Part shown: positions 10,161 through 59,361 of the stretch, in pieces
Layout of the letters: each line of letters opens with the position of its first letter
Position numbering within the stretch: the stretch's first letter is position 1
From: an uncultured Eubacteriales bacterium
GTDB taxonomy: Bacteria; Acidobacteriota; Aminicenantia; Aminicenantales; Aminicenantaceae
DNA length: 64,000 bases
Reading direction: 5' to 3'
Assembly (NCBI GenBank): GCA_964514305.1
Contig: CAZEQD010000001.1
Span: 27,181-91,180 of the forward strand
Program-made: the position numbers and the translations under genes
The notes under the pieces: generated by a model
What the model was told of the DNA's origin: nothing
Database searches by the model: none
Seen by the model: the letters and a program-made list of their open reading frames with translations, nothing else

Positions 10161-10165
10161 TTGAA

Positions 10166-10280
10166 GTTTAAGGTTTAAAGTGAAAAGTGAAAAGTAAGAA
10201 GTGAGAAGTGAAGAGTGGGAAGTTAGGAGTTGAAGGTTTAAGGTTAATTTCTTTAAACTTTCAACTTTAAACTTTAAACC
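10166..10280. repeat. Intergenic array of phased 7-nt repeats (12 heptads: gtttaag gtttaaa gtgaaaa gtgaaaa gtaagaa gtgagaa gtgaaga gtgggaa gttagga gttgaag gtttaag gttaatt) followed by inverted GTTTAAA heptads
   Basis: Strict 7-nt periodicity over about 84 nt on the + strand. Then tttaaactttcaactttaaactttaaacc, which is the same heptad on the opposite strand. Sits between the beta-like and alpha-like subunit genes. Confidence 0.7.
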
Positions 10281-10294
10281 AATAAGAGGTTTTA

Positions 10295-11191
10295 ATGTCC
10301 ATTCTGGTTAACAAAAAATCAAGAGTTTGTGTGCAGGGAATTACCGGAAGAGAAGGCATGGTCCGAACTAAATTGATGCTTGATTATGGTACTCAAGTAG
10401 TAGCTGGGGTGACTCCAGGGAAGGGAGGAAAAGAAGTTTATGGAGTTCCTGTTTTCGATTCTGTCCAGCAAGCTATGACTAAAGTTGGTCAGCTCGACAT
10501 CAGTGTTATTTTTGTTCCCGCTCCCTTAGTCAAAAACGCAGCCTTAGAGGCAATAGATGCCGGCATTAAACTTCTTGTTCTTATTCCCGACCGAGTGCCT
10601 ATTTATGATGTTCTGGAAATTATAAGTTTTGCCCAAGAGAGAGGAGCTCGATTTGTGGGACCTAATACTCTGGGTCTGATCAGTCCGGGGAAAGCAGTCT
10701 TAGGTATGATAGGAGGTCGAGCCGAAAGAGCCAGAGAATGGTTTCAACCTGGAACGATCGGGGTCAGTTCCCGAAGTGGAGGCATGACTTCAGCAATTTC
10801 CTATTATCTAACTCAGGTAGGCCTCGGTCAGAGTACCATCGTTCATGTGGGCGGGGATGCTGTTTTAGGCCTTTCTCATCCAGAAATTATGGAGCTTTTT
10901 GAAAAAGATGAGCAAACAGAAATGGTCGTTATGTTTGGGGAAATAGGGACAACACAAGAGGAAAGAGTAGCTGATTTAATTAAGGAAGGGAAATTTACTA
11001 AGCCTCTTATTGCCTTTATAGGTGGCAAAGCCGCTAAATCCGGGACAAGATTTTCCCATGCGGGGGCTATTGTTGAAGGTTCTAAAGGCTCCTATGAAAC
11101 TAAAGTCAAGAAATTGAGGGAGGTTGGAGTTCATATTGCTCATTCGATCTCTGATATTCCCAATTTAGCTCTGCGCTTAAAAATATCCTAA
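10295..11191 (+). CDS. Succinyl-CoA synthetase alpha-like / ATP-citrate lyase alpha N-terminal-like CoA-binding subunit (candidate citryl-CoA synthetase small subunit)
   Basis: Collinear match to SucD: ...VQGITGREG..., GVTPGKGG, SRSGGMTS, phosphohistidine loop SHAGAI. RBS aagaggttttaATG. Confidence 0.85.
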   Translation: MSILVNKKSRVCVQGITGREGMVRTKLMLDYGTQVVAGVTPGKGGKEVYGVPVFDSVQQAMTKVGQLDISVIFVPAPLVKNAALEAIDAGIKLLVLIPDRVPIYDVLEIISFAQERGARFVGPNTLGLISPGKAVLGMIGGRAERAREWFQPGTIGVSSRSGGMTSAISYYLTQVGLGQSTIVHVGGDAVLGLSHPEIMELFEKDEQTEMVVMFGEIGTTQEERVADLIKEGKFTKPLIAFIGGKAAKSGTRFSHAGAIVEGSKGSYETKVKKLREVGVHIAHSISDIPNLALRLKIS

Positions 11192-11202
11192 GGAGACAAA
11201 CC

Positions 11203-11979
11203 ATGAGTGAACTTCATTGGAAAACCTCAATAACCGATATTAAGCCCAATAAAATTTGTGTAAGGGGTTATGCTGTAGACAAGTTGATGGGCAAAGTGTC
11301 TTTTGCTCAAGCTATTTATCTGATTTTAAAGGGGGAACTTCCTCCAGTGGAAGTAGGTAAATTAATTGAGGCTATTCTCGTTTCTTCAATTGATCATGGA
11401 GCTAGTCCTCCTTCGGTTTTAACAGCTCGAACTGTAGCTTCAACCGGAGCCGAGCTAAATGCGGCCATTGCCGCCGGCATTCTGGCTATTTCCCATTACC
11501 ACGGAGGAGCAGTGGAAGAAGGGATGCAACTTTTTTTAGAGGTTGACAGGAGGGCAACCAGCAAGAATATTTCCATCAGGAAAGCAGTTGCTGAAATATT
11601 AAAGGAAATGAAAGATAAGAAAAAAAGGGCTTCCGGTTTTGGCCATCGATTTCATTCTCAGGATCCGAGAACTAAAAAGCTTTTTTCCCTGGCTGAGGAG
11701 CTTGGCCTGGCCGGCAAGTTTGTAAAAATTGCTTTAACTATAGAAGAAGAATTAGCTGATCTTGTGGGCCACCCTCTGCCCCTAAATGTCGATGGGGCCA
11801 TAGCTGCTCTTCTTTGCGAGCTAGACATACCTCCAGAAATAGGCAATGCTTTCTTTATTATGGCGCGAGTTCCTGGACTGGTAGCCCATATCCATGAAGA
11901 AAAGAGCAGAATGAAACCAATGAGGAAGATCCATCCCCAGGATTATGAATATGACGGTCCCCCGGAGAGAGATTTATGA
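11203..11979 (+). CDS. Citrate synthase-like small protein (candidate citryl-CoA lyase)
   Basis: 258 aa with the citrate-synthase catalytic-domain motifs HYHGGA, GFGHRFHSQDPR, NVDG, ARVPGLVAHIHEE, but no CS N-terminal domain. That size and content fit the citryl-CoA lyase / AclA C-terminal family. Confidence 0.7.
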   Translation: MSELHWKTSITDIKPNKICVRGYAVDKLMGKVSFAQAIYLILKGELPPVEVGKLIEAILVSSIDHGASPPSVLTARTVASTGAELNAAIAAGILAISHYHGGAVEEGMQLFLEVDRRATSKNISIRKAVAEILKEMKDKKKRASGFGHRFHSQDPRTKKLFSLAEELGLAGKFVKIALTIEEELADLVGHPLPLNVDGAIAALLCELDIPPEIGNAFFIMARVPGLVAHIHEEKSRMKPMRKIHPQDYEYDGPPERDL

Positions 11980-12512
11980 TGGCCAGTCGAATTACATCTT
12001 TAATTCCTGAGTTTAATCTTATTGAAGATAGCCAGCTTCGTCAGCAAACAATTAAGGTCTGGCAGGAGGCAATAAAAAGTAGAAGCTGGACCTTGGAGGA
12101 TCTGAAAGCCATGCCTTTCACATTGTTGATTGAGGAAGCTCAGGTTAACATAATCCAGCATACCCGAGCTGTTACTATCTGTGCGTATAAAATTGGCCAA
12201 GTTTTAAAGAAGGAATACAGGGATAAAATCAGTCTTAACCAAGATTATCTGGTAGCAGGTGCCCTCCTTCATGATGTGGGTAAGCTTTTTGAGTTTAAGA
12301 GAGAGGCTAAAAAATTTGTCAAAAGTGAGGAAGGCAAGTTAATCCGTCATCCCATATCTGGGGCTGCATTTGCTTCTAAATATGGGCTTCCCTCCGAAAT
12401 CATTCATATTATCGCTGCGCATTCTAAAGAAGGAGACGGGGCCAGAAGGACGTTGGAAGCGGTCATCGTCCATCATGCTGATTTTATTAACTTTGAAATT
12501 TTCTTAGAATAA
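11976..12512 (+). CDS. HD domain phosphohydrolase
   Basis: HDVGK motif plus a downstream HHADF-type metal ligand. 178 aa. Overlaps and is coupled to the upstream gene. Confidence 0.65.
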   Translation: MMASRITSLIPEFNLIEDSQLRQQTIKVWQEAIKSRSWTLEDLKAMPFTLLIEEAQVNIIQHTRAVTICAYKIGQVLKKEYRDKISLNQDYLVAGALLHDVGKLFEFKREAKKFVKSEEGKLIRHPISGAAFASKYGLPSEIIHIIAAHSKEGDGARRTLEAVIVHHADFINFEIFLE

Positions 12513-12533
12513 AAGTAAAAGAGGAGAAATTAT

Positions 12534-13787
12534 TTGGGTAAGACATTTACCGAAAAAATTCTAAGCCTTAAGGCGGGTCGAGATGTTAAAGCTGGTGATA
12601 TTGTTACCGTCTCTCCAGATTACATTCTTTCTCACGATAATTCAGCAGCTATTATCCAAGAGTTTAAGAAGCTGGGTCTGGCCAAGATGAGGTGGCCCCA
12701 AAAGGTGGTTATCGTTTTGGATCATGTGGTTCCCGCTTCCTCGGAAAAATACGCTCTCAATCATAAGATAATCAGGCAGTTTGTAGCAGCCCAGAAAATA
12801 AAAAATTTTTTTGACATTTCGCGGGGAATATGCCACCAGGTTTTTTTTGAAGAAGGATTTGCCTTGCCAGGGAAGTTGATCTTAGGAGCCGATTCCCATA
12901 CTACCTTGGCTGGAGCTTTGGGCGCTTTTGCCGCTGGCATCGGCCGTTCAGAAGTAGCCGCTCTATGGGCGACAGATGAGATCTGGCTAAAGGTTCCTCC
13001 TACTATAAAAATTGAAATAGAAGGCAAAATCCCTGATGGAGTTTATGCCAAAGATATTATTCTCCATATAATTGGTCAGGAAGGAGCTGATAGAGCTAAT
13101 TACAGATCAGTTGAATTTTGGGGGAAAACAGCAAAAGAAATGAGCCTTTCTTCTCGACTGGTTCTGGCCAATATGGCGGCAGAAATGGGGGCCAAAAATG
13201 CTTTCTTTGCACCTGACAATAAAACAGAACAATGGCTATCTGGAAGGGCGAGGAGCGATTTCCAGCCCATTATTCCCGATCCAGAGGCTGATTATGAAGA
13301 TATTCTTCGATATGATATTTCTCAACTGGACCCTCAAGTTGCCTGTCCCCACAGGGTAGATAATGTCTGCCCCATCTCAGAAGTGGAAGGGCTGAAGTTC
13401 GATCAGGCAGTGATAGGTACCTGCACCAATGGTCGGGCTGAAGACCTGGAAGTAGCTGCTAAACTTTTGAAAGGAAAAAACATCCATCCTGGAGTGAGAG
13501 TTATAATTATTCCCGCTTCCTGCCTGGTCTACCTCCAGGCACTGCAAGCAGGTTGGTTGGAAGATTTATCCAAGGCAGGCTGCTTAATTTTAAATCCAGG
13601 TTGTGGGCCTTGCCTTGGAGCCCATGAGGGAGTTTTGGCCCCAGGAGAAGTGGCTTTGTCTACAGCCAACCGTAATTTTCGGGGAAGGATGGGAAGCAGA
13701 GAGGCTGAAATTTACCTGGCTTCGCCGGCCACTGTGGCCGCTTCTTCTTTGGAAGGAAAAATCACAGACCCTAGGAAATATCTATGA
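12534..13787 (+). CDS. Aconitase-family dehydratase large subunit, archaeal-type (3-isopropylmalate/homoaconitate/aconitate hydratase LeuC/HacA-like)
   Basis: 417 aa, MGKTFTEKIL... N-terminus typical of archaeal-type LeuC. GICHQV and Fe-S Cys motifs (GTCTNGR, PGCGPCLG). Confidence 0.85.
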   Translation: MGKTFTEKILSLKAGRDVKAGDIVTVSPDYILSHDNSAAIIQEFKKLGLAKMRWPQKVVIVLDHVVPASSEKYALNHKIIRQFVAAQKIKNFFDISRGICHQVFFEEGFALPGKLILGADSHTTLAGALGAFAAGIGRSEVAALWATDEIWLKVPPTIKIEIEGKIPDGVYAKDIILHIIGQEGADRANYRSVEFWGKTAKEMSLSSRLVLANMAAEMGAKNAFFAPDNKTEQWLSGRARSDFQPIIPDPEADYEDILRYDISQLDPQVACPHRVDNVCPISEVEGLKFDQAVIGTCTNGRAEDLEVAAKLLKGKNIHPGVRVIIIPASCLVYLQALQAGWLEDLSKAGCLILNPGCGPCLGAHEGVLAPGEVALSTANRNFRGRMGSREAEIYLASPATVAASSLEGKITDPRKYL

Positions 13788-14293
13788 AAAAAGGAAGAGT
13801 CTGGAGATATGGAGATAGCGTCAATACAGATGTTATCTTTCCCGGAAAATATACTTATTCTATTCAAGAGCCTAAGGAAATGGCTGCTCATGCTCTGGAG
13901 GATCTTGACCCTCAGTTTTCAAAGAAAGTAAGGCCAGGTGATGTTATTGTAGCCGGCTCGAATTTTGGCTGTGGCAGTTCAAGGGAGCAGGCGGCCACCT
14001 GTCTTAAATATGCTGGTCTGCAGGCGGTTATTGCTAAATCTTTTGCCCGGATTTTCTTTCGGAATGCCATTAATCAGGGACTACCTGTTATTCAGTCCCC
14101 TCAAGCTGTGGAGAATATTGCCAATGGCGAAGAAATTGCCATCGATTTTACTCGGGGTAAAATCAAAACCAAAACTAAATCCTTTAACTTTGAGCCTCTG
14201 CCTGATTATATCTTAAAGATTCTTGAGGCTGGAGGTCTTATTGCCTACGTTAAGAAAAAGCTGAAAAATACAAACAGGAGTAGAACAAAATGA
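13784..14293 (+). CDS. Aconitase-family dehydratase small subunit (LeuD/HacB-like)
   Basis: 169 aa, [14 protein letters not shown] and [13 protein letters not shown] swivel-domain motifs. Coupled to the large subunit. Confidence 0.8.
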
Positions 14294-15405
14294 GTAAATA
14301 TAAAATTGCTCTTTTGCCTGGCGATGGAGTAGGTCAGGACATCATGGAGGCAGCCATGATAGTTCTGGAGAGGATTGGTCTTGAAGCGGACTATGTTTAT
14401 GGTGATATTGGCTGGAGATTCTGGTGTCAGGAAGGAAATCCGCTGCCCGAACGGACTATCAGCCTCCTTAAGGAAACAGATGTCTGTCTTTTCGGAGCTA
14501 TAACTTCCAAGCCCAAGGAGGATGCTCTAAAAGAACTTAACCCTGATTTAAGAGGAAGGGGTTATGTCTATTTCAGCCCTATAGTACGTCTCCGCCAGGA
14601 ATTTGATCTTTATACTAATTTAAGGCCCTGCAAAGCTTATGCGGGCAATCCCCTTAATTACAGAGATAATATAGATTTGGTTATCTTCAGAGAGAATACT
14701 GAAGGTATGTATGCTGGCGTTGAATTTTACCCTCTGCCTGATCAGGTAAGAGAAGCTTTGCTCATTCACCCTAAAATGAAAAAGTTCCAGGATGTTCCTG
14801 TCGAAGAAATTGCTCTTTCCACCCGGATAATGACCAAGAAAGCCTGTAGCAGAATCCTGCGAAGAGCTTTTAATTATGCCCGGAGATATAAGCGGAGATC
14901 CGTGACTCTTGTCGAAAAACCGAATGTGCTCAGAGAAACAGGAGGATTTATCCTGGAAATAGCCCGGCAAATGGCTAAAGAGTATCCTGAAATTGAGTTC
15001 AGAGAAGCTAATATCGATGCCATGGCCATGTGGTTGGTCAAAAATCCTCAAGATTATGATGTCTTAGTGGCTGAGAATTTGTTTGGAGATATTATCTCTG
15101 ATCTTTCAGCTCAATTGGTAGGTGGTTTAGGTTTTGCCTGCAGCGGGAATATAGGTGATGATTATGCTCTTTTTGAACCCACCCATGGTTCTGCTCCTAA
15201 ATATAGCGGCCTCTACAAGGTGAATCCCATAGCCATGCTCCTGGCCACAAAAATGATGCTTGATTGGTTAGGTGAGGAGGATTTAGCTAAAAACTTGGAA
15301 AGGGCAGTAGCCCAAGTTATTAAAGAAGGTAAAGTAAGGACCTATGATTTAGGGGGTAACTCTTCGACACTGGATGTTGCCCGAGAAGTTGCTTCAAAAC
15401 TTTAG
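14290..15405 (+). CDS. Isocitrate/isopropylmalate/homoisocitrate dehydrogenase family protein
   Basis: 371 aa. IALLPGDGVGQDI, LRQEFDLYTNLRP, NLFGDIISDL and FEPTHGSAPK motifs of the beta-decarboxylating dehydrogenase family. Substrate cannot be assigned from sequence. Confidence 0.85.
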   Translation: MSKYKIALLPGDGVGQDIMEAAMIVLERIGLEADYVYGDIGWRFWCQEGNPLPERTISLLKETDVCLFGAITSKPKEDALKELNPDLRGRGYVYFSPIVRLRQEFDLYTNLRPCKAYAGNPLNYRDNIDLVIFRENTEGMYAGVEFYPLPDQVREALLIHPKMKKFQDVPVEEIALSTRIMTKKACSRILRRAFNYARRYKRRSVTLVEKPNVLRETGGFILEIARQMAKEYPEIEFREANIDAMAMWLVKNPQDYDVLVAENLFGDIISDLSAQLVGGLGFACSGNIGDDYALFEPTHGSAPKYSGLYKVNPIAMLLATKMMLDWLGEEDLAKNLERAVAQVIKEGKVRTYDLGGNSSTLDVAREVASKL

Positions 15406-15419
15406 GAATATATAAAAAA

Positions 15420-16670
15420 ATGGGTCAGACTATTATCGAAAAAATCATTCAAAGCCATACCCAGGAAGAAGTCAGACCTGGTAAAATTGTCTGGCTGGAT
15501 CTGGATATCAGGTCGGCCAGGGATTTCGGCGGCCCCAATGTTGTCCGCAACTACGAGAGGGAATATGGGGATAAACCAGTGGCTGATAGCCGTAAAACCT
15601 TTTTCACTTTTGATCTTTGTGCTCCGGCCTGTTCTTTAAAATATGCCGATAACCAGCAGCTTTGTCGTTTATTTGCTCGCCGTCAGAATATAAAAGTTTT
15701 TGATGTTGATCAAGGTATAGGTTCCCATGTTATGATAGAAGAGGGCTTGGCTAAAGCCAGGACTACCGTTGTCGGTACTGACAGTCATTTCAACATTCTG
15801 GGAGCAGTAGGCAGCTTTGGTCAGGGCATGGGCGATGTCGATATTGCCTTTGCCTTTAGAACAGGCCGAACCTGGTTTGAGGTACCGGAAACAGTAAAAA
15901 TTATTCTTAAGGGCAAGTTTTCTTTTCCGACCACAGCTAAGGATGTGACTCTTTTTATCCTAAAAAACCTGGGGACTTCTAAAGCAGCCTTAAAGGCAAT
16001 TGAATTTTATGGGGAAGCGTTGAGGCAGTTTTCTTTAGCTGAACGGATCACTCTCTGTTCGATGGTTACTGAGATGGCCGGCATTATTGGTTTTATCCCT
16101 GAATTTAAGGCTCAGACAAAAGCTGAAATAGAAAAAGTTTCAGGAGTGGAATTTAATCCCTTTCAAGCTGATGAGGATGCTTACTATACTGAGACAATTG
16201 GGATTGACATTGATGGTCTCCAGCCTCAGGTAGCTGCTCCTTTTTCCCCAACCAACGTTAGACCGGTCTCTGACTTAAAAGGAGTGAGGATCGACTCTGG
16301 CTTTATTGGTTCCTGTACAAATGGACGAGTGGAAGATTTTGCTTTGGCCAGTCGTATTTTAGCCGGCAGAAAAATAAAGCCTGGGATAATGCTTAAAATA
16401 GCCCCGGCCACCAGGCTGGTCTATCAACAGATGCTGGAAAAGGGGCTGATTAAAGAACTTTTTCAGAGTGGAGCCATTATTGATAGTCCTGGCTGTGGAG
16501 GATGTGCTGAAGGGCATATCGGTCTTACCGGAGAAGGCGAAATTCAAATAAGCAGTGCCAACAGAAATTTCGCCGGTAAACAAGGTAAGGGTCAAACCTA
16601 CCTGGCCAGCCCTGCTGTGGTTGCTGCCTCTTGTGTTTTAGGTCATATTGCCAGCCCGGAGGATTTATAA
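15420..16670 (+). CDS. Second aconitase-family dehydratase large subunit (archaeal-type LeuC/HacA-like paralog)
   Basis: 416 aa, MGQTIIEKII..., GTDSHF, GSCTNGR, PGCGGCAEG. Paralogous to 12534-13787. Confidence 0.8.
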   Translation: MGQTIIEKIIQSHTQEEVRPGKIVWLDLDIRSARDFGGPNVVRNYEREYGDKPVADSRKTFFTFDLCAPACSLKYADNQQLCRLFARRQNIKVFDVDQGIGSHVMIEEGLAKARTTVVGTDSHFNILGAVGSFGQGMGDVDIAFAFRTGRTWFEVPETVKIILKGKFSFPTTAKDVTLFILKNLGTSKAALKAIEFYGEALRQFSLAERITLCSMVTEMAGIIGFIPEFKAQTKAEIEKVSGVEFNPFQADEDAYYTETIGIDIDGLQPQVAAPFSPTNVRPVSDLKGVRIDSGFIGSCTNGRVEDFALASRILAGRKIKPGIMLKIAPATRLVYQQMLEKGLIKELFQSGAIIDSPGCGGCAEGHIGLTGEGEIQISSANRNFAGKQGKGQTYLASPAVVAASCVLGHIASPEDL

Positions 16671-17211
16671 AGTGAAAAAAAGCAGATTAAAAGGAAGGCT
16701 GTGGGTCCTTTGTGATAGCCAAGGTCAGTTGCTGGAAGATATTGATACCGATCAAATTTATCATAATGCATACCTCTACATTACTGATGTAGCCCAAATG
16801 GGTCAATATGCTCTGGGAAGTCTGAAAGGCTGGAAAGATTTTTCCCGAAAAGCTTCGGCCGGGGATATTATTGTGGCCGGCCGCAATTTTGGAGCCGGAT
16901 CTTCCAGACAGCAGGCAGTGGATTGTTTTATTTCTCTGGGAATATCGATGATTATGGCTCCTTCTTTTGGGGCCATTTATTTTAGAAATGCTGTTAATTC
17001 TGGCTTTCCTGTGCTCAGGAGTGCTGAAATTGAGTCATTAGTCAGGAATAAAGAATTGGAAAGTGGAGATATAGTCAAGGTTGATTTCAGACAGGGCCAG
17101 GCTATAAACATAACTAAAAAGATCTCTTTTACTTTAGAGTCCATGAGTGATGTCCAATACCAAATATACTTGGCCGGGGGATTATTCAGATATGGACGGA
17201 AGTTAAGATAA
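16648..17211 (+). CDS. Second aconitase-family small subunit (divergent LeuD-like)
   Basis: 187 aa, DIDTDQIYH and GRNFGAGSSRQQA motifs. Overlaps and is coupled to the large subunit. Confidence 0.7.
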   Translation: MPARRIYKVKKSRLKGRLWVLCDSQGQLLEDIDTDQIYHNAYLYITDVAQMGQYALGSLKGWKDFSRKASAGDIIVAGRNFGAGSSRQQAVDCFISLGISMIMAPSFGAIYFRNAVNSGFPVLRSAEIESLVRNKELESGDIVKVDFRQGQAINITKKISFTLESMSDVQYQIYLAGGLFRYGRKLR

Positions 17212-26110: not shown

Positions 26111-26157
26111 AGCTTAAATTTTTCTCTAAGCTAAGAAGGAGGCTCTGTTACTGAATT

Positions 26158-26324
26158 GCCGGTGGGGTCAGACCTTCATAAGTTTCATAACTTTAATTTT
26201 TACAATAACTGTAATAATTTTTGTCCCCTACAAACCGACGAGATATATCAATAGAGAAGCATAATTTATGAAACTTATGAAGGTCTGACCCCGTGTATAT
26301 TACCCCACTTTTCGTTATAGAGCC
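26158..26324. repeat. Dispersed repeat element, copy 1 (perfect 27-bp inverted repeats 26164-26190 / 26266-26292 flanking a ~75-bp core, plus ~35-bp conserved tail)
   Basis: Roughly 90% identical (by eye) to 52115-52307 in the same orientation. Arms ggggtcagaccttcataagtttcataa / ttatgaaacttatgaaggtctgacccc. Confidence 0.85.
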
Positions 26325-48122: not shown

Positions 48123-49018
48123 TAGATTCTTTCGGCTGCCCTTAGTTTGGCTGACCTGGCTCTAAAATTGAGAGAAATTTCTTCCGTTGTAGGGACTACC
48201 GGCTTTTTGGTTAAAATTTTGAGCAAAGGCTGAGTATTTACTCCAGAGGCTAGCTCGGCCAGGGTATGTTTAATTATTCTGTCTTCTAAGGAGTGAAAAG
48301 AAATAGCTACTAATCGTGCTGAGGGAGGTAGCTTGTTGATTATTTTTATCAAAAAGTTATCAAGACCCTTCAACTCATGATTAACCTCGATACGCAAGGC
48401 TTGAAAGACTTTAGCGGCCGGATGGATTTTACCTTTTTGGGGTCTTGAAGGACATATTTTTTCCACAAGGCGACGTAGCTCGGTGGTTGTTTCTATTTTT
48501 TTGATTTTTCGCTGGCGGACGATTTCTTTAGCCAGTTTTTTTGCCTGTCTGAATTCGCCATATTCTAAAAAAAGCTGGGCAAGCTTATGTTCTGGATATT
48601 TATTTATTAATTTTGAAGCGGTGACTTTGTGACGTAAATCCATTCTCATATCGAGTGGTCCTTCTTGATTGAAGCTGAATCCCCTTTGGGGAGAATCAAG
48701 TTGGAAAGAAGAAAGCCCCAGATCAAGGAGTACTCCTCTAATATGGGAGAAATCAATATTAAGATCAGGCAGATACCTGAAATCTGAATGATAGAGTTCA
48801 ACTCTATTGGCATAAGGCTTGAGTTTTTTTTTAGCTAAGAGAAGGGAACTTTTATCGATATCAAAACCAATAAGGAATGCTTTTGGATTCCTTTTTACGA
48901 TTTGTAAGGCATGGCCAGCAAGCCCCAGAGTACAATCGACATAAATTCCCTCTCTGGCTACAGCCAAATAGTCCATTACTTCTTCTAAAAGGACAGGAGT
49001 ATGAACGCCTGTAGTCAT
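48122..49018 (-). CDS. rsmH: 16S rRNA (cytosine1402-N4)-methyltransferase RsmH (MraW)
   Basis: MTTGVHTPVLLEEV..., GVYVDCTLGLAGH, LLDLGLSSFQLD. Confidence 0.9.
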   Translation of the reverse strand: MTTGVHTPVLLEEVMDYLAVAREGIYVDCTLGLAGHALQIVKRNPKAFLIGFDIDKSSLLLAKKKLKPYANRVELYHSDFRYLPDLNIDFSHIRGVLLDLGLSSFQLDSPQRGFSFNQEGPLDMRMDLRHKVTASKLINKYPEHKLAQLFLEYGEFRQAKKLAKEIVRQRKIKKIETTTELRRLVEKICPSRPQKGKIHPAAKVFQALRIEVNHELKGLDNFLIKIINKLPPSARLVAISFHSLEDRIIKHTLAELASGVNTQPLLKILTKKPVVPTTEEISLNFRARSAKLRAAERI

Positions 49019-49482
49019 TTATTTTTTTCCTGAGGGAGGAGCTCGGCCATATTTTCAAAATCTTCATTGGTCAGAGGCTTTTCTTCTAGGGCTTCATCAA
49101 GAATGTCTTTGTTCCAGATTTCCAGATGATTGGAAAGACCAATAACTTCGACTTCGTCCTCCAATTTAGCTTTTTCTCTCAGTGATTGATTAATTAAGAT
49201 CCGGCCTTTAGAATCTATATTGTATTTCATTCCCTTTCTGTTGACTCTAAGCATGAATTTCCTGACCGTGGGCTTAAGATGAAGGGCTCCTTCATTGGCA
49301 ATGCCCGTTAACTCTTCCCAGACAGAAAGGGGATAAACTTGGACTGCTTCATCAGTTAGAGAAGTTATAAAAAGTTCTTTTCCGTATTCCTCTTCAATGG
49401 CTGCTCGAAATTTTTCCGGAATTTTAATGCGGCCGCTCTTATCAAACCTGGCTGAATAACTTCCAATTAACGAATTTCCCAC
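49015..49482 (-). CDS. mraZ: Transcriptional regulator MraZ
   Basis: Two DxxGR repeats (FDKSGRIKIP / IDSKGRILIN). First gene of the dcw operon. Confidence 0.85.
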   Translation of the reverse strand: MGNSLIGSYSARFDKSGRIKIPEKFRAAIEEEYGKELFITSLTDEAVQVYPLSVWEELTGIANEGALHLKPTVRKFMLRVNRKGMKYNIDSKGRILINQSLREKAKLEDEVEVIGLSNHLEIWNKDILDEALEEKPLTNEDFENMAELLPQEKNK

Positions 49483-49680
49483 TTTGTCCCGTTTCGTCCC
49501 GTTTTTTCCTAAAATATATGGAAGAAATAAACCAATGTCAAGAAAAAAATATAAAAAAAATCCATTTATTTTTTTTATTTTCTATATTTTTCCATATATA
49601 GTAGAGACCTAGGCTTAAGCACTATATTTGGCACGAGAAAAAGCGGGAAGATTAATAAGGGAAGGGAAAAAGATTTTTAT

Positions 49681-49941
49681 TCAGAGCTTTTCTTTTTGGG
49701 TCAGGAGTTTTTTGGCTAAGGAATAGTTTTTTTCAGTAACCAATATCTTTATTTCCCCTAGTCCATCAGCTGAAAAAGGATGTACAGATTGGACCACCTG
49801 TCCCCGGAAAAGGCAGGAAATACCATGACTTTCCAAAAAACTTTTTATGACCTCAGCCTCTGCTGGTCCCCAAACCTTGCAAATTTCTCTCAGCTGGGTC
49901 TCCGGTTCTGACTTTTGCTTTTGTTCTTTTTTTCTCTTCAT
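49681..49941 (-). CDS. DUF2007-like small protein (putative signal-transducing protein)
   Basis: 86 aa. ...AEAEVIKSFLESHGI..FRGQ..SVHP pattern resembles DUF2007. Confidence 0.45.
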   Translation of the reverse strand: MKRKKEQKQKSEPETQLREICKVWGPAEAEVIKSFLESHGISCLFRGQVVQSVHPFSADGLGEIKILVTEKNYSLAKKLLTQKEKL

Positions 49942-50038: not shown

Positions 50039-50344
50039 TCAGTCATTTTCCTCTTCTTCTAAGTCAGTAATGTTTCCTGACTGAAAAAGATAAGTTTTTA
50101 ATTCTTTAGCCATAGCTTGATCATTTCGTCTAATCCATTCCAGAATCATGGCCGCATGTTCTTTTTCTTCATCTCTGTTATGGGCTAATATTTCTTTTAA
50201 CTCTTTATTGTCTGTAGCATCTACTCGCTGTTGATACCAGTTGATGGCTTCTAATTCTTCAATCAGAGAATTTAAAGCTCGATGGAGATCTACTGTTTCC
50301 GGGCTGAGTTTATCAATTGATTCGTGATAGATACCTCCTCCCAT
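50039..50344 (-). CDS. Encapsulated-ferritin-like (EncFtn/Flp family) mini-ferritin, without recognisable encapsulin targeting peptide
   Basis: 101 aa. ELEAINWYQQRVDAT...ILAHNRDEEKEHAAMILEWIRRND matches the EncFtn E..Y / E..H di-iron motifs as I recall the family. Acidic C-terminus LEEEEND. Confidence 0.55.
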   Translation of the reverse strand: MGGGIYHESIDKLSPETVDLHRALNSLIEELEAINWYQQRVDATDNKELKEILAHNRDEEKEHAAMILEWIRRNDQAMAKELKTYLFQSGNITDLEEEEND

Positions 50345-50785
50345 TTATTCCTCCTTATTTTTTATATTTTTGTTTCTTTTTTGTTGGAAATAGTCTTTTA
50401 AAATTTGCTGGTGGTCAAAGGCAAGGGGAAAGTTGATTTCTTCAGGGGCAAAAATACCAATTTGTTGAGCATCGTCTGCAGCTTTGGGTTGGCCTTGAGC
50501 TTTGGCTACATAAACGGTCGAGATTGTATGCTGGCGAGGATCCCGCTGCGGATCAGAGTAAGTATGGAGCTGGTATAAAAGCTTCACATCAAGAGATGTT
50601 TCTTCTTTTGCTTCCCTTACCGCAGCTTGTTCTAAGGATTCTCCATAGTCAACAAATCCTCCCGGGAGGGCCCACCCGTAAGGAGGGTTTTTCCTTTTAA
50701 TGAGAACAATTCCCTCCTTTCCCTCTTCTCTTTCCATCTCAATTATAATATCCACTGTGGGGATTGGATTTTTATATTTTTTCAT
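50345..50785 (-). CDS. Nudix hydrolase
   Basis: Nudix box [24 protein letters not shown]. Confidence 0.8.
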
Positions 50786-50922: not shown

Positions 50923-52029
50923 TTAATCTCTTAGTTTAAATTTTTTATCCAGTTTTTCGAGTGTTTGGACAATACCGCCATACTCCAGCTCACTATAAGG
51001 AAGCATAGCTGCTCCTGAAAATCCTTGTCTCCTGATGGCCGTGGCCTTTTCAGAAATTTTAGTACGGACATAATCCCAGTAGGGGTGGTCGAAAACATCA
51101 GCCGGTTCAGTTAATTTACCATCTTTGACACAAAAGGCAGCTCCAGTAACTACAGGCGGACCATCGAAGAAGGAAATGGTAGTGTTCAGCTTACAAGGCA
51201 TCAGAGGTCCATTATGGCTTCCTCTCATAAACCCGGCCACAAAATGTCCGATATGAAAAGGAGCCAGAACTTCTCCTGTAGCGGGAAATTCACCCTGGAC
51301 CCGGACTAAAGCCACCGGATCGTCTTTGCCTGTATATTTACCAGCAATATTGTGTAAACGAGTGGTCGAAATAGCTACCGCTTTATTGCCAGTCCGGCGG
51401 GAATAAATGCTTTCAATGACGTATCTTTCATTGTCCCGGAGAAGGGCAGCAATGTCATACAGATCTTCAGGCGCATTAAGTTCGATTATTTTATCTTTTT
51501 CTGTGTAGGCCACATCTATGATGTGAAAGCTGAAGCCATCACTCATTTTTGGGCTTAAAATTAAGCCGGCACAGTACATAGGATCAGCAAAAGCCAGGTA
51601 GAAGGGTAAATTATAAGCACCTGGATCAGTTTTATCAGCCGCAAAAAAGACAAAGGGCTCATTGGGACGCTCTTCAAATTCCATTTCAGCTACAGCAGGG
51701 CCCATGCCTTTTATGTTGCCGCTGAAGGCGTCTTTCAATAGATCCTGGCCAGCTCCATAAAGGCCTTGTTTTTTGGCCATAGCTGTCCCAGCCAGGAAAG
51801 CATCCCAGGCCAATTTATGAATCTTTTCGTCCAGTCGACCTCTTTCATGAGTGCATAAAATAGCGATGTCGTCACCAGTATGACTGAGATAGAAATCGAT
51901 TAATAAATTTTTGCCATTTTCCTGGATGAAATTCCTAACTTCATTGATCAATGCTTGGCTGGGAGTTATATGACCTCCAATGCTTCCAACATCAGCTTTT
52001 AAGACACTAAGTGTTATTTTCATAAACAC
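50923..52029 (-). CDS. fbp: Bifunctional fructose-1,6-bisphosphate aldolase/phosphatase (class V FBPase)
   Basis: KITLSVLKADVGSIGGH and AFLAGTAMAKKQGLYGAGQDLLKDAFSGNIKGMGPAVAEME closely parallel the archaeal FBP aldolase/phosphatase family. About 368 aa, as expected. Confidence 0.85.
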   Translation of the reverse strand: MFMKITLSVLKADVGSIGGHITPSQALINEVRNFIQENGKNLLIDFYLSHTGDDIAILCTHERGRLDEKIHKLAWDAFLAGTAMAKKQGLYGAGQDLLKDAFSGNIKGMGPAVAEMEFEERPNEPFVFFAADKTDPGAYNLPFYLAFADPMYCAGLILSPKMSDGFSFHIIDVAYTEKDKIIELNAPEDLYDIAALLRDNERYVIESIYSRRTGNKAVAISTTRLHNIAGKYTGKDDPVALVRVQGEFPATGEVLAPFHIGHFVAGFMRGSHNGPLMPCKLNTTISFFDGPPVVTGAAFCVKDGKLTEPADVFDHPYWDYVRTKISEKATAIRRQGFSGAAMLPYSELEYGGIVQTLEKLDKKFKLRD

Positions 52030-52114
52030 CTCCCCTTAAATTATTAAATTTTTTTTTAAGATATCTTATTCTAATTTGTTTTTCGTCTGAAAGTCAACCT
52101 TTGTCTGTGAATTC

Positions 52115-52307
52115 CAGGTGGGGTCAGACCTTCATAAGTTTCATAACTTTAATTTTTACAATAATTGTAATAACTTTTGTCCCCTACAGACCGACGAAAT
52201 ATATCAATAGAGAAGCATAATTTATGAAACTTATGAAGGTCTGACCCCGTCTGCTGACTATTATATGTGTATATTACCCACTTTTCGTCAAAGAGCCCCT
52301 TTGTCTT
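52115..52307. repeat. Dispersed repeat element, copy 2 (27-bp perfect inverted repeats 52120-52146 / 52222-52248)
   Basis: Same element as 26158-26324, with an ~18-bp insertion in the tail. Same orientation. Confidence 0.85.
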
Positions 52308-52442: not shown

Positions 52443-54518
52443 ATGCAGATGAACTTAAAAAGGACAAGCTTCATAGTTTTGTTGGCTGTTTTTTCTTTGC
52501 TGCCAGCTCTCCTTTTGGCTAATTCCAATTATGACTATGTTTATTCTCCCAAGACTGAAATATATTTTGGCCACATAAGCTACAGCGAAGTTATGAATGA
52601 TGGTCAAGACCCCGTCGTTTTAAGAGAAGGGAAAAAAATACCTGAAGTAGCGGTTTTAAACCTCCCCTTAACAACAGGAGATGTCATTATAACTCCGGCC
52701 AAGCGGAGATGTGAAATTCAGTTTGATACAGGGACTATAATCAGGCTTGATCACAATACTGAATTAAAGATTGAAACTATTCTGGCTCAGAGCCTTAGTT
52801 CACGAAAGAAGTTAACTAACCTTATTCTTAAGAAAGGACAAATTTATGTTATGTACAAGAAGTACAATTCTCGAGAGCTATTCCAGGTGATAACAACTAA
52901 GGCAGCAGTCAAAATGGACCATAAAACAGTAGCGATTGTCCAGGCCGGTTTGGATGGTCAAACAGATATCCAGGTTAAGCTGGGAAAAGCTGAAGTCTTA
53001 TATGGAGCTGACGAAGAGCATCTTCATAAAAAAAAGATTAAAAAACTGCAGAGACTGACTGTTTCCCCCAGTGACCAGATTACTTTGGGTAAGTATGAAC
53101 CTGAGATTGATTTTGAACTCTGGAATAAGGTTATAAATGAAAAATTTAAGACACTTCATCAAGGACAAAGTTTTCTACCCCAACCTATCCAGAAATTGCC
53201 CCCAGCAGTTTTTTATTTTGCTCAGAAATACTCTAATGTTTATGGTGAATGGGTCTGGAACAGTCTCTACGGTTATGTCTGGCGTCCTAACTATAATGAT
53301 TATTATCCTTGGGGGAGATGGCAGCCTTATTTTTATGGTCAGTGGAGAGAGATTCAAGGGCAGCTCTTCTGGGTGCCTGAGGAAAGCTGGGGTTGGGTTC
53401 CCTATCATTTGGGCCTCTGGCTCTGGGACAAAAAATACGGCTGGATATGGCTGCCGGGCTCTGCTTTTGCTCCAGCTTGGGTAGCTTGGAATTTTTACAT
53501 GGGCTACTATACCTGGAGACCTTGGACGCTCTGGGATTGGTGTGGCTATTATTACCCAGATTATTATTTAAGCAGTGCTTATGATTATTACTATTATGCT
53601 TATCCTTATGATTACTGGCAGTCAGCATATTACAGGCAACCTGAAAATCAGAAAGGCCAGAAAATTCTTCATGTAATCCGCAAAGATCAATTGCAAAGAA
53701 AAGAAAACCCTCCCTATCCTCTTCCCAAAAGTTTTAAAAAGGCCTACCAGAATTTTGCTAATGCTTTAAAGAAAAATGATGAAAGGGCAATTTCCCTATT
53801 GAAAAAGATACCTGAAGGCATAATTGTGGTCAAAACTAAAGACCTAAATACTCCTCACCTTCAGAAGGTATCTCTGGGATTAGAGCAAATTTCAGGAGAT
53901 GTAAAAAACCTGAAGATTTCTACCAGGCCCAAGTTAAAAGGTTGTGATTTGACTCCTTATAGAAAAGCAGTTGGTGACTTCAAAAGGAATGCCATTATCT
54001 CAAAATTAAGGAAATATGTGTTTTCCTCCTTTTCAAATAAGAAAAAAACTGCATTCTCTAAAACAAAAATTTCTTCAGCTAAGCCTGAAGCAAGCTTTGA
54101 ATGGAGGACAATTCCTTTTAGCAGCAGTAAATTCATGCCTCAAACTGCAGGAAAAGAATTTCCAGCCAAAGTTGGTTCTTTATCTCAGAGACCCATTCAT
54201 AGAGCTCCATCGATTCGCCTCAGGGATTGGAATCCTGATGTGAAAGTAGCCCAGAAGATAGGGGTAACCATAAATTATGACAGTCCCTCTAACGAAATAA
54301 GATGCCCTTCCTTGGGCCTTTCTTCCAAAAATGTAGCTGTATCCAGATCTGGCGTCAGCCTGAGAAGTGGATTTTATTCTGCTGGAGGAGGTTTTTATTC
54401 ATCTTCTGGGGGTGCAGGAGGAAGTCAAGCTTTACCTGGTTCTCATAGAGGTTCTTCGGGTTCGCATTTCAGCTCCGGTAGCAGTGCCAAAAGTGGGAGC
54501 AGACCCAAGAAAAATTAA
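52443..54518 (+). CDS. Secreted FecR-like protein with Trp/Tyr-rich low-complexity region and Ser/Gly-rich C-terminal tail
   Basis: Signal peptide. FecR-like beta region (VIITPAKRRCEIQFDTGTIIRLDHNTELKIE). Residues ~270-400 are 35-40% W+Y. C-terminus GGFYSSSGGAGGSQ...SGSS. Confidence 0.6.
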   Translation: MQMNLKRTSFIVLLAVFSLLPALLLANSNYDYVYSPKTEIYFGHISYSEVMNDGQDPVVLREGKKIPEVAVLNLPLTTGDVIITPAKRRCEIQFDTGTIIRLDHNTELKIETILAQSLSSRKKLTNLILKKGQIYVMYKKYNSRELFQVITTKAAVKMDHKTVAIVQAGLDGQTDIQVKLGKAEVLYGADEEHLHKKKIKKLQRLTVSPSDQITLGKYEPEIDFELWNKVINEKFKTLHQGQSFLPQPIQKLPPAVFYFAQKYSNVYGEWVWNSLYGYVWRPNYNDYYPWGRWQPYFYGQWREIQGQLFWVPEESWGWVPYHLGLWLWDKKYGWIWLPGSAFAPAWVAWNFYMGYYTWRPWTLWDWCGYYYPDYYLSSAYDYYYYAYPYDYWQSAYYRQPENQKGQKILHVIRKDQLQRKENPPYPLPKSFKKAYQNFANALKKNDERAISLLKKIPEGIIVVKTKDLNTPHLQKVSLGLEQISGDVKNLKISTRPKLKGCDLTPYRKAVGDFKRNAIISKLRKYVFSSFSNKKKTAFSKTKISSAKPEASFEWRTIPFSSSKFMPQTAGKEFPAKVGSLSQRPIHRAPSIRLRDWNPDVKVAQKIGVTINYDSPSNEIRCPSLGLSSKNVAVSRSGVSLRSGFYSAGGGFYSSSGGAGGSQALPGSHRGSSGSHFSSGSSAKSGSRPKKN

Positions 54519-58527: not shown

Positions 58528-59361
58528 ATGAAAAGTCTAAAAATTTTAAAAATTATTCCAGGATTTCTATTACTCCTTGCTTTATTTACCCCTCCAGCTA
58601 CAGCTCAGGGACATTTTGAATTCAGCTTTCATTATTCCCGCTGGAGTATTGACCTTCTTCGAGGGATGATTGAAGAAGGTATAAGCGATGCTCTTAAAAC
58701 AGACTTGAAGGATAAATTCTTAGAAGATATCAGAGAAGATCACAACGTAGAGGAGACAAGCTACAGTCAGAATGTTTCCTTTGATTCCAGTGGTGATAAC
58801 TATGGAGTTGAGGTCCGCTGGTATCCAGGGGGAGCGAACGGTTCTTTCAGTCTTGGTTTGGCTGTGGAGAAGACAACCATGAAGATTTCTCTGCCCGATG
58901 TCTCAGGTGACTTGGCCCTGACCGATCTTGATACCCAGGAGACAGCCAGTTTTAAAGCCAAAGCTAACGGCGAGTTTTTAATCAAACCCCTCTCTTTTCA
59001 TTTAAGCTTCCGTTGGGATATTGTTCCTTCATCGCCTATCCATCCTTATATAACCTTCGGAGTGGGAATGGCTGGGGGGACAGCCCTTGAGGAGGCGACA
59101 GTGACTTACTCTTATACAGGTGACCTGACCATTGGAGAAGAAGAGCCTGAACATTATGAAGGCGGAGAAACTAAATCTATTAAACAGCTTAAGGACGATC
59201 TTGAAGCTGAGGGAGAAGACTTCTTTATACCTGGATTTTTTCCGTTTATTCAATTAAATCTGGGGATAAAGGGAGAGATAACCAATAATCTTCATCTTTT
59301 AGTTGACGCTGGCATTTGGGATGGATTTCTGATCAGAGGAGCGGTTGCTTTTCGTTTTTAA
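58528..59361 (+). CDS. Putative outer-membrane beta-barrel protein
   Basis: Signal peptide ending ATAQG. Alternating hydrophobic pattern. C-terminal ...GAVAFRF with terminal Phe (OMP beta-signal). Confidence 0.5.
   Translation: MKSLKILKIIPGFLLLLALFTPPATAQGHFEFSFHYSRWSIDLLRGMIEEGISDALKTDLKDKFLEDIREDHNVEETSYSQNVSFDSSGDNYGVEVRWYPGGANGSFSLGLAVEKTTMKISLPDVSGDLALTDLDTQETASFKAKANGEFLIKPLSFHLSFRWDIVPSSPIHPYITFGVGMAGGTALEEATVTYSYTGDLTIGEEEPEHYEGGETKSIKQLKDDLEAEGEDFFIPGFFPFIQLNLGIKGEITNNLHLLVDAGIWDGFLIRGAVAFRF

Follow-up and report, generated by a model that had tools for sequence, protein, structure and literature searches.

The 64-kb window analysed here (the whole stretch of DNA under study) carries genes for an FBP aldolase/phosphatase (FBPA/P), a Nudix hydrolase, an EncFtn-like ferroxidase and a DUF2007 protein, and raises the question of whether these genes form a functional unit headed by a bifunctional gluconeogenic enzyme and whether that enzyme signals a CO2-fixing host. 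The host is a Candidatus Aminicenantes bacterium, as the best FBPA/P matches are 85–96% identical and named Aminicenantes. These homologs, from Aminicenantes or Aminicenantales metagenome-assembled genomes (MAGs; for example P0001, P0023, P0059, and P0062 in CP070825.1), have equal length and the same locus architecture. Public contigs were 99.94% identical to the window across 20 kb (99.94–99.98% for loci L087–L090), and loci that are identical or nearly so already stand in public databases with automatic annotation. The features of the cluster are as follows.

52068–52097, minus strand: predicted sigma-70-type promoter of the FBPA/P gene, TTGACT-N18-TAGAAT, 10/12 consensus positions
52029–52035, minus strand: Shine-Dalgarno sequence GGGGAGG, 5 nt upstream of the ATG at 52023, read from the sequence
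50923–52023, minus strand: FBP aldolase/phosphatase (class V FBPase), 366 aa, from a corrected ATG at 52023, assigned by PF01950, NF041126, PDB matches and residues
50345–50785, minus strand: Nudix hydrolase, 146 aa, of an NrtR/ADP-ribose-pyrophosphatase-like clade (Pfam NUDIX PF00293; Nudix box at residues 43–65)
50039–50344, minus strand: EncFtn-like ferroxidase of the short s-FLP class, 101 aa, beginning right after the Nudix stop codon (PF22277, TIGR04535)
49681–49941, minus strand: DUF2007 small protein, 86 aa, predicted beta-alpha-beta-loop-beta-alpha ferredoxin-like fold (PF09413)
49513–49541, minus strand: strong predicted promoter of mraZ and the dcw cluster, TTGACA-N17-TATATT, 11/12 consensus positions, the downstream boundary of the unit
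49015–49482, minus strand: mraZ, first gene of the dcw cluster (Pfam MraZ, E = 1.3e-20; gene order in public contigs)

Identity and spread of the aldolase/phosphatase

The open reading frame at 50923–52029 on the minus strand is real, and the GTG start listed earlier for it is probably two codons upstream of the true one. The ATG that follows the Shine-Dalgarno sequence, the length of 364–366 aa in all close homologs and the 366 aa given by gene callers in 99.9%-identical public contigs together place the coding sequence at 50923–52023. Because of the wrong GTG start, an exact-sequence search with the 368-aa frame returned no match, and the identical public locus was reached through EncFtn.

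The family match is far beyond chance. FBPA/P covered Pfam PF01950 (FBPase_3/FBP_aldo_phos) from position 1 to 361 of 361 (E = 7.6e-163, 542.3 bits against a cut-off of 25), scored 555.7 bits against a cut-off of 520 for the NCBIfam equivalog NF041126, and matched PDB structures 3r1m from S. tokodaii (E = 2.2e-104) and 3t2b (E = 5.4e-98). It is colinear over its full length with, and of the same length class as, the enzymes of S. tokodaii (ST0318; ~48% identity, E = 2e-104) and Thermoproteus neutrophilus (3R1M/1UMG and 3T2B–3T2G, respectively), and differs from them in its host, an uncultured bacterium of the Aminicenantes with about 40% GC.

All 12 catalytic and Mg-binding positions examined were the same as in S. 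tokodaii and were invariant in 81/81 aligned family sequences. They comprise the Mg cluster D11, H18, D51, D52, Q93, D130, D234 and D235 (D12, H19, D53, D54, Q95, D132, D233 and D234 in S. tokodaii), K131 (K133), the Schiff-base lysine K233 (Lys232) and the catalytic tyrosines Y230 and Y348 (Tyr229 and Tyr348). We take the catalytic roles of Lys232, Tyr229, Tyr348 and the Mg-site residues to be those given by Fushinobu et al. and Du et al. 2011, and the residue numbers agree exactly with our alignment. The original prediction of a bifunctional FBPA/P was thus borne out at the level of family, with profile, equivalog and structure matches all full-length and the catalytic Lys, Tyr and Asp residues all present; the gene is genuine and intact, and its product is predicted to have both activities.

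The accompanying premise, which limits class V enzymes among bacteria to a small number of deep-branching and mostly autotrophic ones, is out of date, since relatives of FBPA/P at 69–89% identity were found in more than 580 GTDB species genomes over many bacterial phyla. Carriers included Thermodesulfobacteriota, Syntrophia, Zixibacteria, Ignavibacteria, Bacteroidales, Gemmatimonadota, Spirochaetota and Planctomycetota, and the nearest sequences outside Aminicenantes were other bacterial ones (69–76% identity). FBPA/P is common in Aminicenantes and many other bacteria, and its neighbours, upstream of the cell-division genes, are an evolutionary patchwork and no dedicated pathway, which makes the finding for the most part an ordinary one.

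Promoters, gene order and read-through

The predicted promoter motif lay 60–77 nt upstream of the ATG in 23/30 Aminicenantes loci, compared with 3/57 loci from other phyla, and AGGAGG-type sites occurred at the equivalent place in 30 relatives. These patterns indicate that FBPA/P has its own conserved predicted promoter and a strong ribosome-binding site. The region upstream of the promoter holds the following.

52098–52106, unstranded: promoter-proximal copy of the 9-bp target-site duplication, reading AGACAAAGG on the minus strand
52107–52297, unstranded: MITE-like palindromic element, 191 bp, with 27-nt perfect inverted arms, directly upstream of the −35 hexamer
52298–52306, unstranded: distal copy of the 9-bp target-site duplication, repeating 52098–52106
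52443–54518, plus strand: FecR and DUF6600 protein, 691 aa, divergent, an upstream neighbour kept in relatives

As a separate observation, a high-copy palindromic MITE-like element with a 9-bp duplication landed right at the FBPA/P promoter. The site was empty of the element in 96%-identical relatives (L003 and L005), in which the 9-bp sequence is single-copy, and the family was found in at least 117 metagenome stretches. An Rfam scan of the whole window returned no matches, so the inverted repeat does not correspond to any RNA family already known. The population represented by the window differs from most Aminicenantes relatives both in this insertion and in having EncFtn between the Nudix and DUF2007 genes.

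The order FBPA/P-Nudix-EncFtn-DUF2007-mraZ on a shared strand was confirmed, and the four family assignments were confirmed by profile, in line with what had been proposed. The EncFtn start codon directly adjoins the Nudix stop codon and is preceded by an AGGAGG site, and gaps of 137 bp and 97 bp lie inside the FBPA/P-Nudix-EncFtn-DUF2007 set of the window. Across relatives, FBPA/P-Nudix gaps ranged from −3 to 208 bp, with −3 to 11 bp in some; the median of 84 bp is long for a tight operon and counts against co-transcription. Within the FBPA/P-Nudix spacer of the window we found no terminator, and RNA structure there was no better than in shuffled sequences (z = −0.53). By simple consensus scans, a promoter motif, even a loose one, was present in 0/33 FBPA/P-Nudix spacers, while 4/4 loci without FBPA/P had one upstream of Nudix.

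The proposed co-transcription of FBPA/P with the downstream genes is therefore plausible, given a spacer with no terminator, structure or promoter motif, and we infer that it would start from the conserved FBPA/P promoter. Transcription most likely continues into Nudix, EncFtn and possibly DUF2007, which has a weak promoter-like motif upstream (TTGAAT-N17-TATTAT, 9/12). From the independent mraZ promoter on, such read-through would no longer be relevant. MraZ-box-like repeats occur at mraZ, which is followed by rsmH, ftsL, ftsI, murE and other genes of the dcw cell-division/cell-wall cluster.

The neighbouring genes and the make-up of the cluster

The Nudix protein matched Pfam NUDIX (E = 4.9e-25, 88.5 bits against a cut-off of 21.1) and has the Nudix box (GX5EX7REUXEEXGU) with its catalytic Glu, the sole change being the penultimate G to S. 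It scored far below every NCBIfam equivalog cut-off. The best structure match was the uncharacterised 2YYH of A. aeolicus (E = 2e-37), followed by NrtR-type Nudix domains. The likeness to 2YYH and to NrtR/NadM-type domains (3GZ5, 2QJO) consists of a full-length 2YYH match, the YSDPxRDPR motif region and the RE..EE residues; unlike NrtR, the protein is without a DNA-binding domain, and unlike all of these it has DUF2007 as a partner or as a fused domain. Homologs carry the JGI label 'ADP-ribose pyrophosphatase YjhB (NUDIX family)', and by similarity the protein is probably a nucleotide-diphosphate-X hydrolase of ADP-ribose type.

The DUF2007 protein scored 31.1 bits against a cut-off of 25.7 for Pfam PF09413, and 32 bits against a cut-off of 55 for NCBIfam DUF2007_rel. 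A search of its profile against PDB sequences gave nothing significant, and an AF2 model (pLDDT 70) gave weak fold matches (E ≥ 0.02) that included the family founder 2HFV, ACT and PII-like folds. It is probably a small ACT/PII-like regulatory partner of Nudix. The Nudix-DUF2007 fusion is itself an observation apart: fused open reading frames occurred in many lineages (at least 60 protein clusters), and a model of the fusion had a disordered linker and no sign of a fixed domain interface. In L215–L218 the fusion gene lay directly upstream of mraZ at loci from which FBPA/P is absent.

EncFtn was assigned by PF22277 (E = 8.8e-40, 134.8 bits against a cut-off of 27) and by TIGR04535 (135.5 bits against a cut-off of 125, covering profile positions 1–95 of 114), and matched the structures of R. 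rubrum 5da5 (E = 3.8e-32) and N. europaea NE0167, 3K6C (E = 1.4e-30). Its E30, E60, H63 and Y37 aligned to the ferroxidase-centre residues Glu32, Glu62, His65 and Tyr39 of R. rubrum (PMC11202242). The protein ends in DLEEEEND at residue 101 with no C-terminal targeting peptide, and its closest 120 homolog clusters were mostly 98–101 aa, with a few up to 128 aa. It thus resembles s-FLPs such as NE0167 in its fold family, its length of about 100 aa and its lack of a targeting peptide, features of the s-FLP class (short, without targeting peptide; PMC11202242). It differs from NE0167 and R. rubrum EncFtn in its acidic tail and its place between Nudix and DUF2007 genes. Unlike cargo EncFtn of encapsulins, it has no encapsulin (Linocin_M18) shell gene among the scanned open reading frames of the window or the called genes within 10 kb in L087–L093. 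EncFtn occupies the slot between Nudix and DUF2007 in some lineages only and is absent from most relatives, which points to a sporadically inserted member of the short s-FLP class already described. A Nudix-EncFtn fusion in L016 was dropped as unproven, as its junction codon contains an ambiguous base (X).

The string FBPA/P-Nudix-DUF2007-mraZ was kept in Aminicenantes loci and absent from 59/59 FBPA/P loci of other phyla, among which the only such neighbour was a Nudix gene 1.3 kb away in L059. With EncFtn patchy and Nudix-DUF2007 staying by mraZ where FBPA/P is absent, the idea of the cluster as a functional unit around FBPA/P did not hold up. The slot upstream of the dcw cluster would instead be permissive and the cluster an evolutionary composite, in which Nudix and DUF2007 may be an older, functionally coupled pair, with FBPA/P and a short EncFtn ferroxidase that lacks a shell as candidate lineage-specific additions.

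Competing readings and carbon metabolism

The four genes could still be a module in which FBPA/P, placed ahead of the dcw cluster, provides the fructose-6-phosphate that goes into UDP-GlcNAc and peptidoglycan precursors, Nudix and DUF2007 adjust the level of nucleotide sugars or ADP-ribose, and EncFtn shields metal-dependent enzymes from Fe(II) or oxidant damage. Fructose-6-phosphate is the entry point of amino-sugar synthesis, the same-strand order directly upstream of mraZ is invariant in Aminicenantes with FBPA/P 75–100% identical to that of the window, and read-through from FBPA/P is likely; the Nudix-DUF2007 fusion, a Rosetta-stone case, implies that at least those two proteins work together. 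We nevertheless regard the module as improbable, as the association holds in one clade, the other-phyla FBPA/P loci are without these neighbours bar the one Nudix gene, Nudix-DUF2007 keeps with mraZ regardless of FBPA/P, most relatives do without EncFtn, mraZ carries a strong promoter of its own together with MraZ-box-like repeats, and the Nudix subfamily has no known substrate. A related proposal is equally doubtful. It takes Nudix-DUF2007, split or fused, and not FBPA/P as the conserved element directly upstream of mraZ across Aminicenantia, in which a ligand-gated Nudix hydrolase would link cell-wall synthesis and division to a nucleotide signal or a pool of nucleotide sugars. The Aminicenantales branch would have brought FBPA/P under one promoter with this pair, so that hexose phosphate for peptidoglycan precursors is co-expressed in gluconeogenic (peptide-fermenting) growth. 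Little more can be said for FBPA/P as a redundant or shifted paralog, for example phosphatase-only, beside canonical Fba and Fbp/GlpX elsewhere, which we consider a shade less probable again. Glycolysis requires a reversible aldolase and PFK, for which the unidirectional FBPA/P is no substitute. Aminicenantes have been described as glycolytic (PMC4897734), so the genome would be expected to encode a canonical Fba at least. A glycolytic Fba alongside, however, would not render a dedicated gluconeogenic enzyme redundant; the invariant aldolase-specific residues (the Schiff-base Lys, Tyr230 and Tyr348) make loss of aldolase function unlikely, and FBPA/P is strongly conserved over many MAGs (85–96% identity). 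Using tblastn, E. coli FbaA, FbaB, GatY, Fbp, GlpX and PfkA had no match in an incomplete, mixed 0.8-Mb sample (the window and related MITE-bearing contigs) in which the controls Pgk and TpiA were found.

Very unlikely, in our judgement, is an autotrophic, reverse TCA (rTCA) lifestyle in which FBPA/P channels fixed carbon to sugars. Known autotrophs reportedly use FBPA/P (Say and Fuchs 2010), and the window does contain, 40 kb away, the putative citrate module that had been read as support for CO2 fixation. A citryl-CoA-lyase-type protein of 258 aa, truncated and citrate-synthase-like, exceeded two NCBIfam subfamily cut-offs (268.3 bits against 212; 263.6 against 245), and one of the adjoining synthetase-like subunits has the Citrate_bind domain of ATP-citrate lyase (32 bits against 26.8). 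Three adjacent genes with a matching domain set (an ATP-grasp and citrate-binding large subunit, a CoA-binding small subunit and the lyase-type protein) recall the citryl-CoA synthetase/lyase of Hydrogenobacter thermophilus, which performs two-step rTCA citrate cleavage. Unlike in H. thermophilus, the synthetase subunits fell below the cut-offs of succinyl-CoA synthetase models, and the downstream neighbours are two homoaconitase/IPM-isomerase-type pairs and a homoisocitrate/IPM-dehydrogenase-type gene, which fit 2-oxoglutarate or 2-oxoacid biosynthesis at least equally well. The 64-kb window itself contained no 2-oxoglutarate:ferredoxin oxidoreductase, fumarate reductase or PFOR; it is rich in peptidases (S46, M28, M20 and M23) and has a Na/alanine symporter. 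FBPA/P is also widespread among heterotrophic anaerobe phyla, Aminicenantes-PK28 was reconstructed as a glycolytic heterotroph that breaks down polysaccharides and peptides (PMC4897734), and a carbon-fixation survey paper mentions Aminicenantes only as a fermenter reference. The citryl-CoA synthetase/lyase-like genes exist, then, but do not establish autotrophy.

We therefore favour a functional FBPA/P of Candidatus Aminicenantes, predicted to be bifunctional, with its own promoter and likely read-through, in a composite cluster upstream of dcw, a reading that we consider highly probable. By homology to S. tokodaii (Lys232), the enzyme would condense DHAP and glyceraldehyde-3-phosphate through a Schiff base on Lys233 and then hydrolyse FBP at the Mg cluster to fructose-6-phosphate, a one-enzyme irreversible gluconeogenic step. 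It would feed hexose phosphate to an anaerobic heterotroph fermenting peptides and sugars. The strongly gluconeogenic metabolism originally proposed is reasonable given the identity of the enzyme.

These results offer three modest leads, namely the association with mraZ of an uncharacterised Nudix-DUF2007 pair (or fusion), the occurrence in anaerobes of short EncFtn proteins that lack a shell, and a high-copy MITE family inserting beside promoters. They also show how misleading a string of conserved genes can be, as synteny within one clade hinted at an operon-level link and wider sampling pointed to independent modules stacked upstream of dcw. For the family, they bring a correction: class V FBPA/P is no rare marker of deep-branching autotrophs and, being routine in Aminicenantes and in hundreds of other anaerobic bacterial species, is not readable as a sign of CO2 fixation.

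Identity of the aldolase/phosphatase and its metabolic setting

The gene under study, for a fructose-1,6-bisphosphate aldolase/phosphatase (FBPA/P), was delimited by a mechanical ORF call:

50923-52029, minus strand, FBPA/P ORF from a GTG start

This start, two codons upstream of a better ATG at 52023, is too early, given the GGGGAGG at 52029-52035 that precedes the ATG, the length of close homologs among database matches (364-366 aa) and the 366 aa called on near-identical public contigs. The protein matched Pfam FBPase_3 across the entire profile (E = 7.6e-163), scored 555.7 bits against a cut-off of 520 for the NCBIfam equivalog 'fructose-1,6-bisphosphate aldolase/phosphatase', and aligned end to end with the enzyme structures from S. 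tokodaii (E = 2e-104) and T. neutrophilus (E = 5e-98), which bears out the identity given in the original prediction. We take the catalytic and Mg-binding positions of the S. tokodaii enzyme to be D12, H19, D53, D54, Q95, D132, K133, Y229, K232, D233, D234 and Y348, with K232 as the Schiff base. All 12 were identical in the aligned window protein (D11, H18, D51, D52, Q93, D130, K131, Y230, K233, D234, D235 and Y348) and invariant in 81 of 81 aligned family members, so that the Lys, Tyr and Asp residues singled out for checking are present. The gene is intact and the enzyme assignment correct.

The best database matches, 85-96% identical, are named as FBP aldolase/phosphatase of Candidatus Aminicenantes or Aminicenantales, and public metagenome contigs (L087-L090) share 99.94-99.98% identity with the window over 12-20 kb; the locus is thus already public and automatically annotated. 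The proposal that the enzyme is confined to Archaea and to a handful of deep-branching, mostly autotrophic bacteria did not hold, as a scan in which each GTDB species was represented by one genome returned confirmed relatives in at least 580 species of many phyla, and the best 80 of these (69-89% identity) include Thermodesulfobacteriota, Syntrophia, Zixibacteria, Ignavibacteria, Bacteroidales, Gemmatimonadota, Spirochaetota and Planctomycetota. FBPA/P is a routine, already annotated member of a known family and common in its lineage.

Canonical counterparts were sought by tblastn in 0.8 Mb of partial and mixed sequence, comprising the window and contigs sharing its MITE family (see below); E. 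coli PfkA, FbaA, FbaB, GatY, Fbp and GlpX were not found there, and the controls Pgk and TpiA were. A citryl-CoA-lyase-type protein in the window passed subfamily cut-offs in a profile search, and its gene adjoins genes (8.6-12 kb) for two subunits similar to those of succinyl-CoA synthetase, of which one has a citrate-binding domain; all are part of a longer string:

8601-17211, plus strand, citryl-CoA-synthetase-like large and small subunits, citryl-CoA-lyase-type protein, HDIG-domain protein, two homoaconitase/IPM-isomerase-type pairs (large and small), and a homoisocitrate/IPM-dehydrogenase-type gene

Instead of an rTCA cycle, this string may constitute an ATP-yielding branch for citrate synthesis or for 2-oxoglutarate. 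The window also has many peptidase and transporter genes. Because the citrate module lies 40 kb from FBPA/P, the 64-kb window holds no further rTCA marker, and a published Aminicenantes reconstruction (PMC4897734) is of a heterotroph that has both glycolysis and the TCA cycle, the inference of rTCA-type CO2 fixation, and with it autotrophy, is not supported.

Transcription and an element at the promoter

Profile matches and a motif scan located the following features:

52097-52068, minus strand, FBPA/P promoter, sigma-70-type TTGACT-N18-TAGAAT
50345-50785, minus strand, Nudix protein
50039-50344, minus strand, EncFtn-like protein
49681-49941, minus strand, DUF2007 protein

The gene order FBPA/P, Nudix, EncFtn-like, DUF2007 was as predicted, and mraZ and then the dcw (cell-division/cell-wall) cluster lie downstream. 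A promoter motif of this type occurred 60-77 nt upstream of the FBPA/P ATG in 23 of 30 Aminicenantes loci, and at that position in only 3 of 57 loci of other phyla. The FBPA/P-Nudix spacer, −3 to 208 bp across loci (median 84), measures 137 nt in the window, where it holds no terminator-like site and shows no folding beyond that of shuffled sequence (z = −0.53). Even under a loose pattern, this spacer yielded no promoter-like motif in 33 of 33 loci; each of the four loci without FBPA/P has one upstream of Nudix. The EncFtn start, with an AGGAGG site, directly adjoins the Nudix stop. A spacer without terminator or promoter motif and the abutting Nudix and EncFtn genes point to read-through, such that transcription from the FBPA/P promoter likely continues into both; the predicted co-transcription is plausible to this extent, and a weak promoter-like site ahead of DUF2007 counts against it. 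Since mraZ has a strong promoter of its own (TTGACA-N17-TATATT, 49513-49541, minus strand), the dcw cluster forms a distinct unit. The cluster is probably a transcriptional operon, not a dedicated pathway.

Three direct repeats, AACGGGAC, AACGGGAC and AGTGGGAA, stand with a 10-bp period at 49476-49503 (minus strand), just downstream of the mraZ promoter and overlapping the mraZ GTG start at 49482. They fit (A/G)(C/T)GGGA and resemble MraZ boxes, the MraZ operator repeats of other bacteria.

The FBPA/P promoter is bordered by an insertion:

52107-52297, palindromic MITE-like element of 191 bp with 27-nt perfect inverted arms GGGGTCAGACCTTCATAAGTTTCATAA
52098-52106 and 52298-52306, flanking 9-bp target-site duplications

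The element is inserted exactly upstream of the −35 hexamer, and 96%-identical relatives have an empty site, with the 9-bp target single-copy. A second window copy lies at about 26152-26324, and each of the two has its end just ahead of a TTGAC(A/T) hexamer. At least 117 metagenome stretches carry the arm GGGGTCAGACCTTCATAAGTTTCATAA, L105 having as many as 3 complete copies within 14.5 kb, and the family is MITE-like. In a different Aminicenantes species (L001, CP070825.1), the FBPA/P promoter is directly preceded by a related inverted repeat (9824-9926) whose 31-nt arms are 97% complementary, a placement that reflects either independent insertion at a like site or a promoter-proximal preference or role of the element.

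Adjoining the window's FBPA/P promoter is a divergent gene for a 691-aa FecR + DUF6600 protein (52443-54518, plus strand) with a Tyr/Trp-rich middle and a Gly/Ser-rich C-terminus. In the relatives L001 and L092 it has genes for an ECF sigma factor and, putatively, an anti-sigma factor close by, which suggests a cell-surface signalling module.

Neighbouring proteins and the slot before mraZ

The Nudix protein has an intact Nudix box (residues 43-65), and its nearest match is 2YYH of A. aeolicus, itself uncharacterised (E = 2e-37), followed by NrtR/NadM-type ADP-ribose-binding Nudix domains; ADP-ribose-type hydrolysis would be a reasonable guess. The DUF2007 model (beta-alpha-beta-loop-beta-alpha, pLDDT 70) gave weak fold matches to 2HFV, the founder of the family, to ACT domains and to c-di-AMP receptors of the PII-like type, as would suit a small regulatory domain. 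The EncFtn-like protein keeps the ferroxidase residues E30, E60, H63 and Y37, aligned with Glu32, Glu62, His65 and Tyr39 of R. rubrum EncFtn (PMC11202242). The chain stops at residue 101 and lacks a targeting peptide, no encapsulin shell gene was found among scanned window ORFs or within 10 kb in relatives, and it fits the short ferritin-like protein class (s-FLP, type NE0167/3K6C) described in PMC11202242. Elsewhere in the window, a 277-aa ORF (58528-59361, plus strand) matched no Pfam or NCBIfam family; genes of 273-277 aa without Pfam matches hold the same position beside a cyclophilin gene in L087, L088, L092, L215 and L217.

The order FBPA/P-Nudix-DUF2007-mraZ-rsmH was kept in every Aminicenantes locus with sufficient flank, and no such neighbours were found in any of 59 FBPA/P loci of other phyla, the sole exception being a Nudix gene 1.3 kb off in L059. 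EncFtn occupies the slot between Nudix and DUF2007 only in the window population and in L003-L005, L010, L016 and L092/L093. Nudix and DUF2007 are fused in one ORF of ~240 aa in five GTDB genomes (L024-L027 and L066; for example L026, 11145-11861), and such fusions, at ~235-260 aa, form at least 60 protein clusters (P0121-P0182) from many Aminicenantes lineages, a Rosetta-stone signal that the two proteins act together. A Nudix-EncFtn fusion in L016 (~11229-11984) was set aside, as an ambiguous base falls in the codon at the junction (X in the translation) and the fusion may be an assembly artefact.

In divergent lineages (L215-L218) the Nudix-DUF2007 fusion gene immediately precedes mraZ and has no FBPA/P within 6 kb of it, which indicates that the lasting link is that of Nudix/DUF2007 with the dcw cluster. 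FBPA/P and EncFtn appear to be lineage-specific occupants of one slot, and the comparative evidence argues largely against the FBPA/P cluster as a functional module. As modest leads, the locus offers the link between Nudix-DUF2007 and mraZ, and the MITE family.
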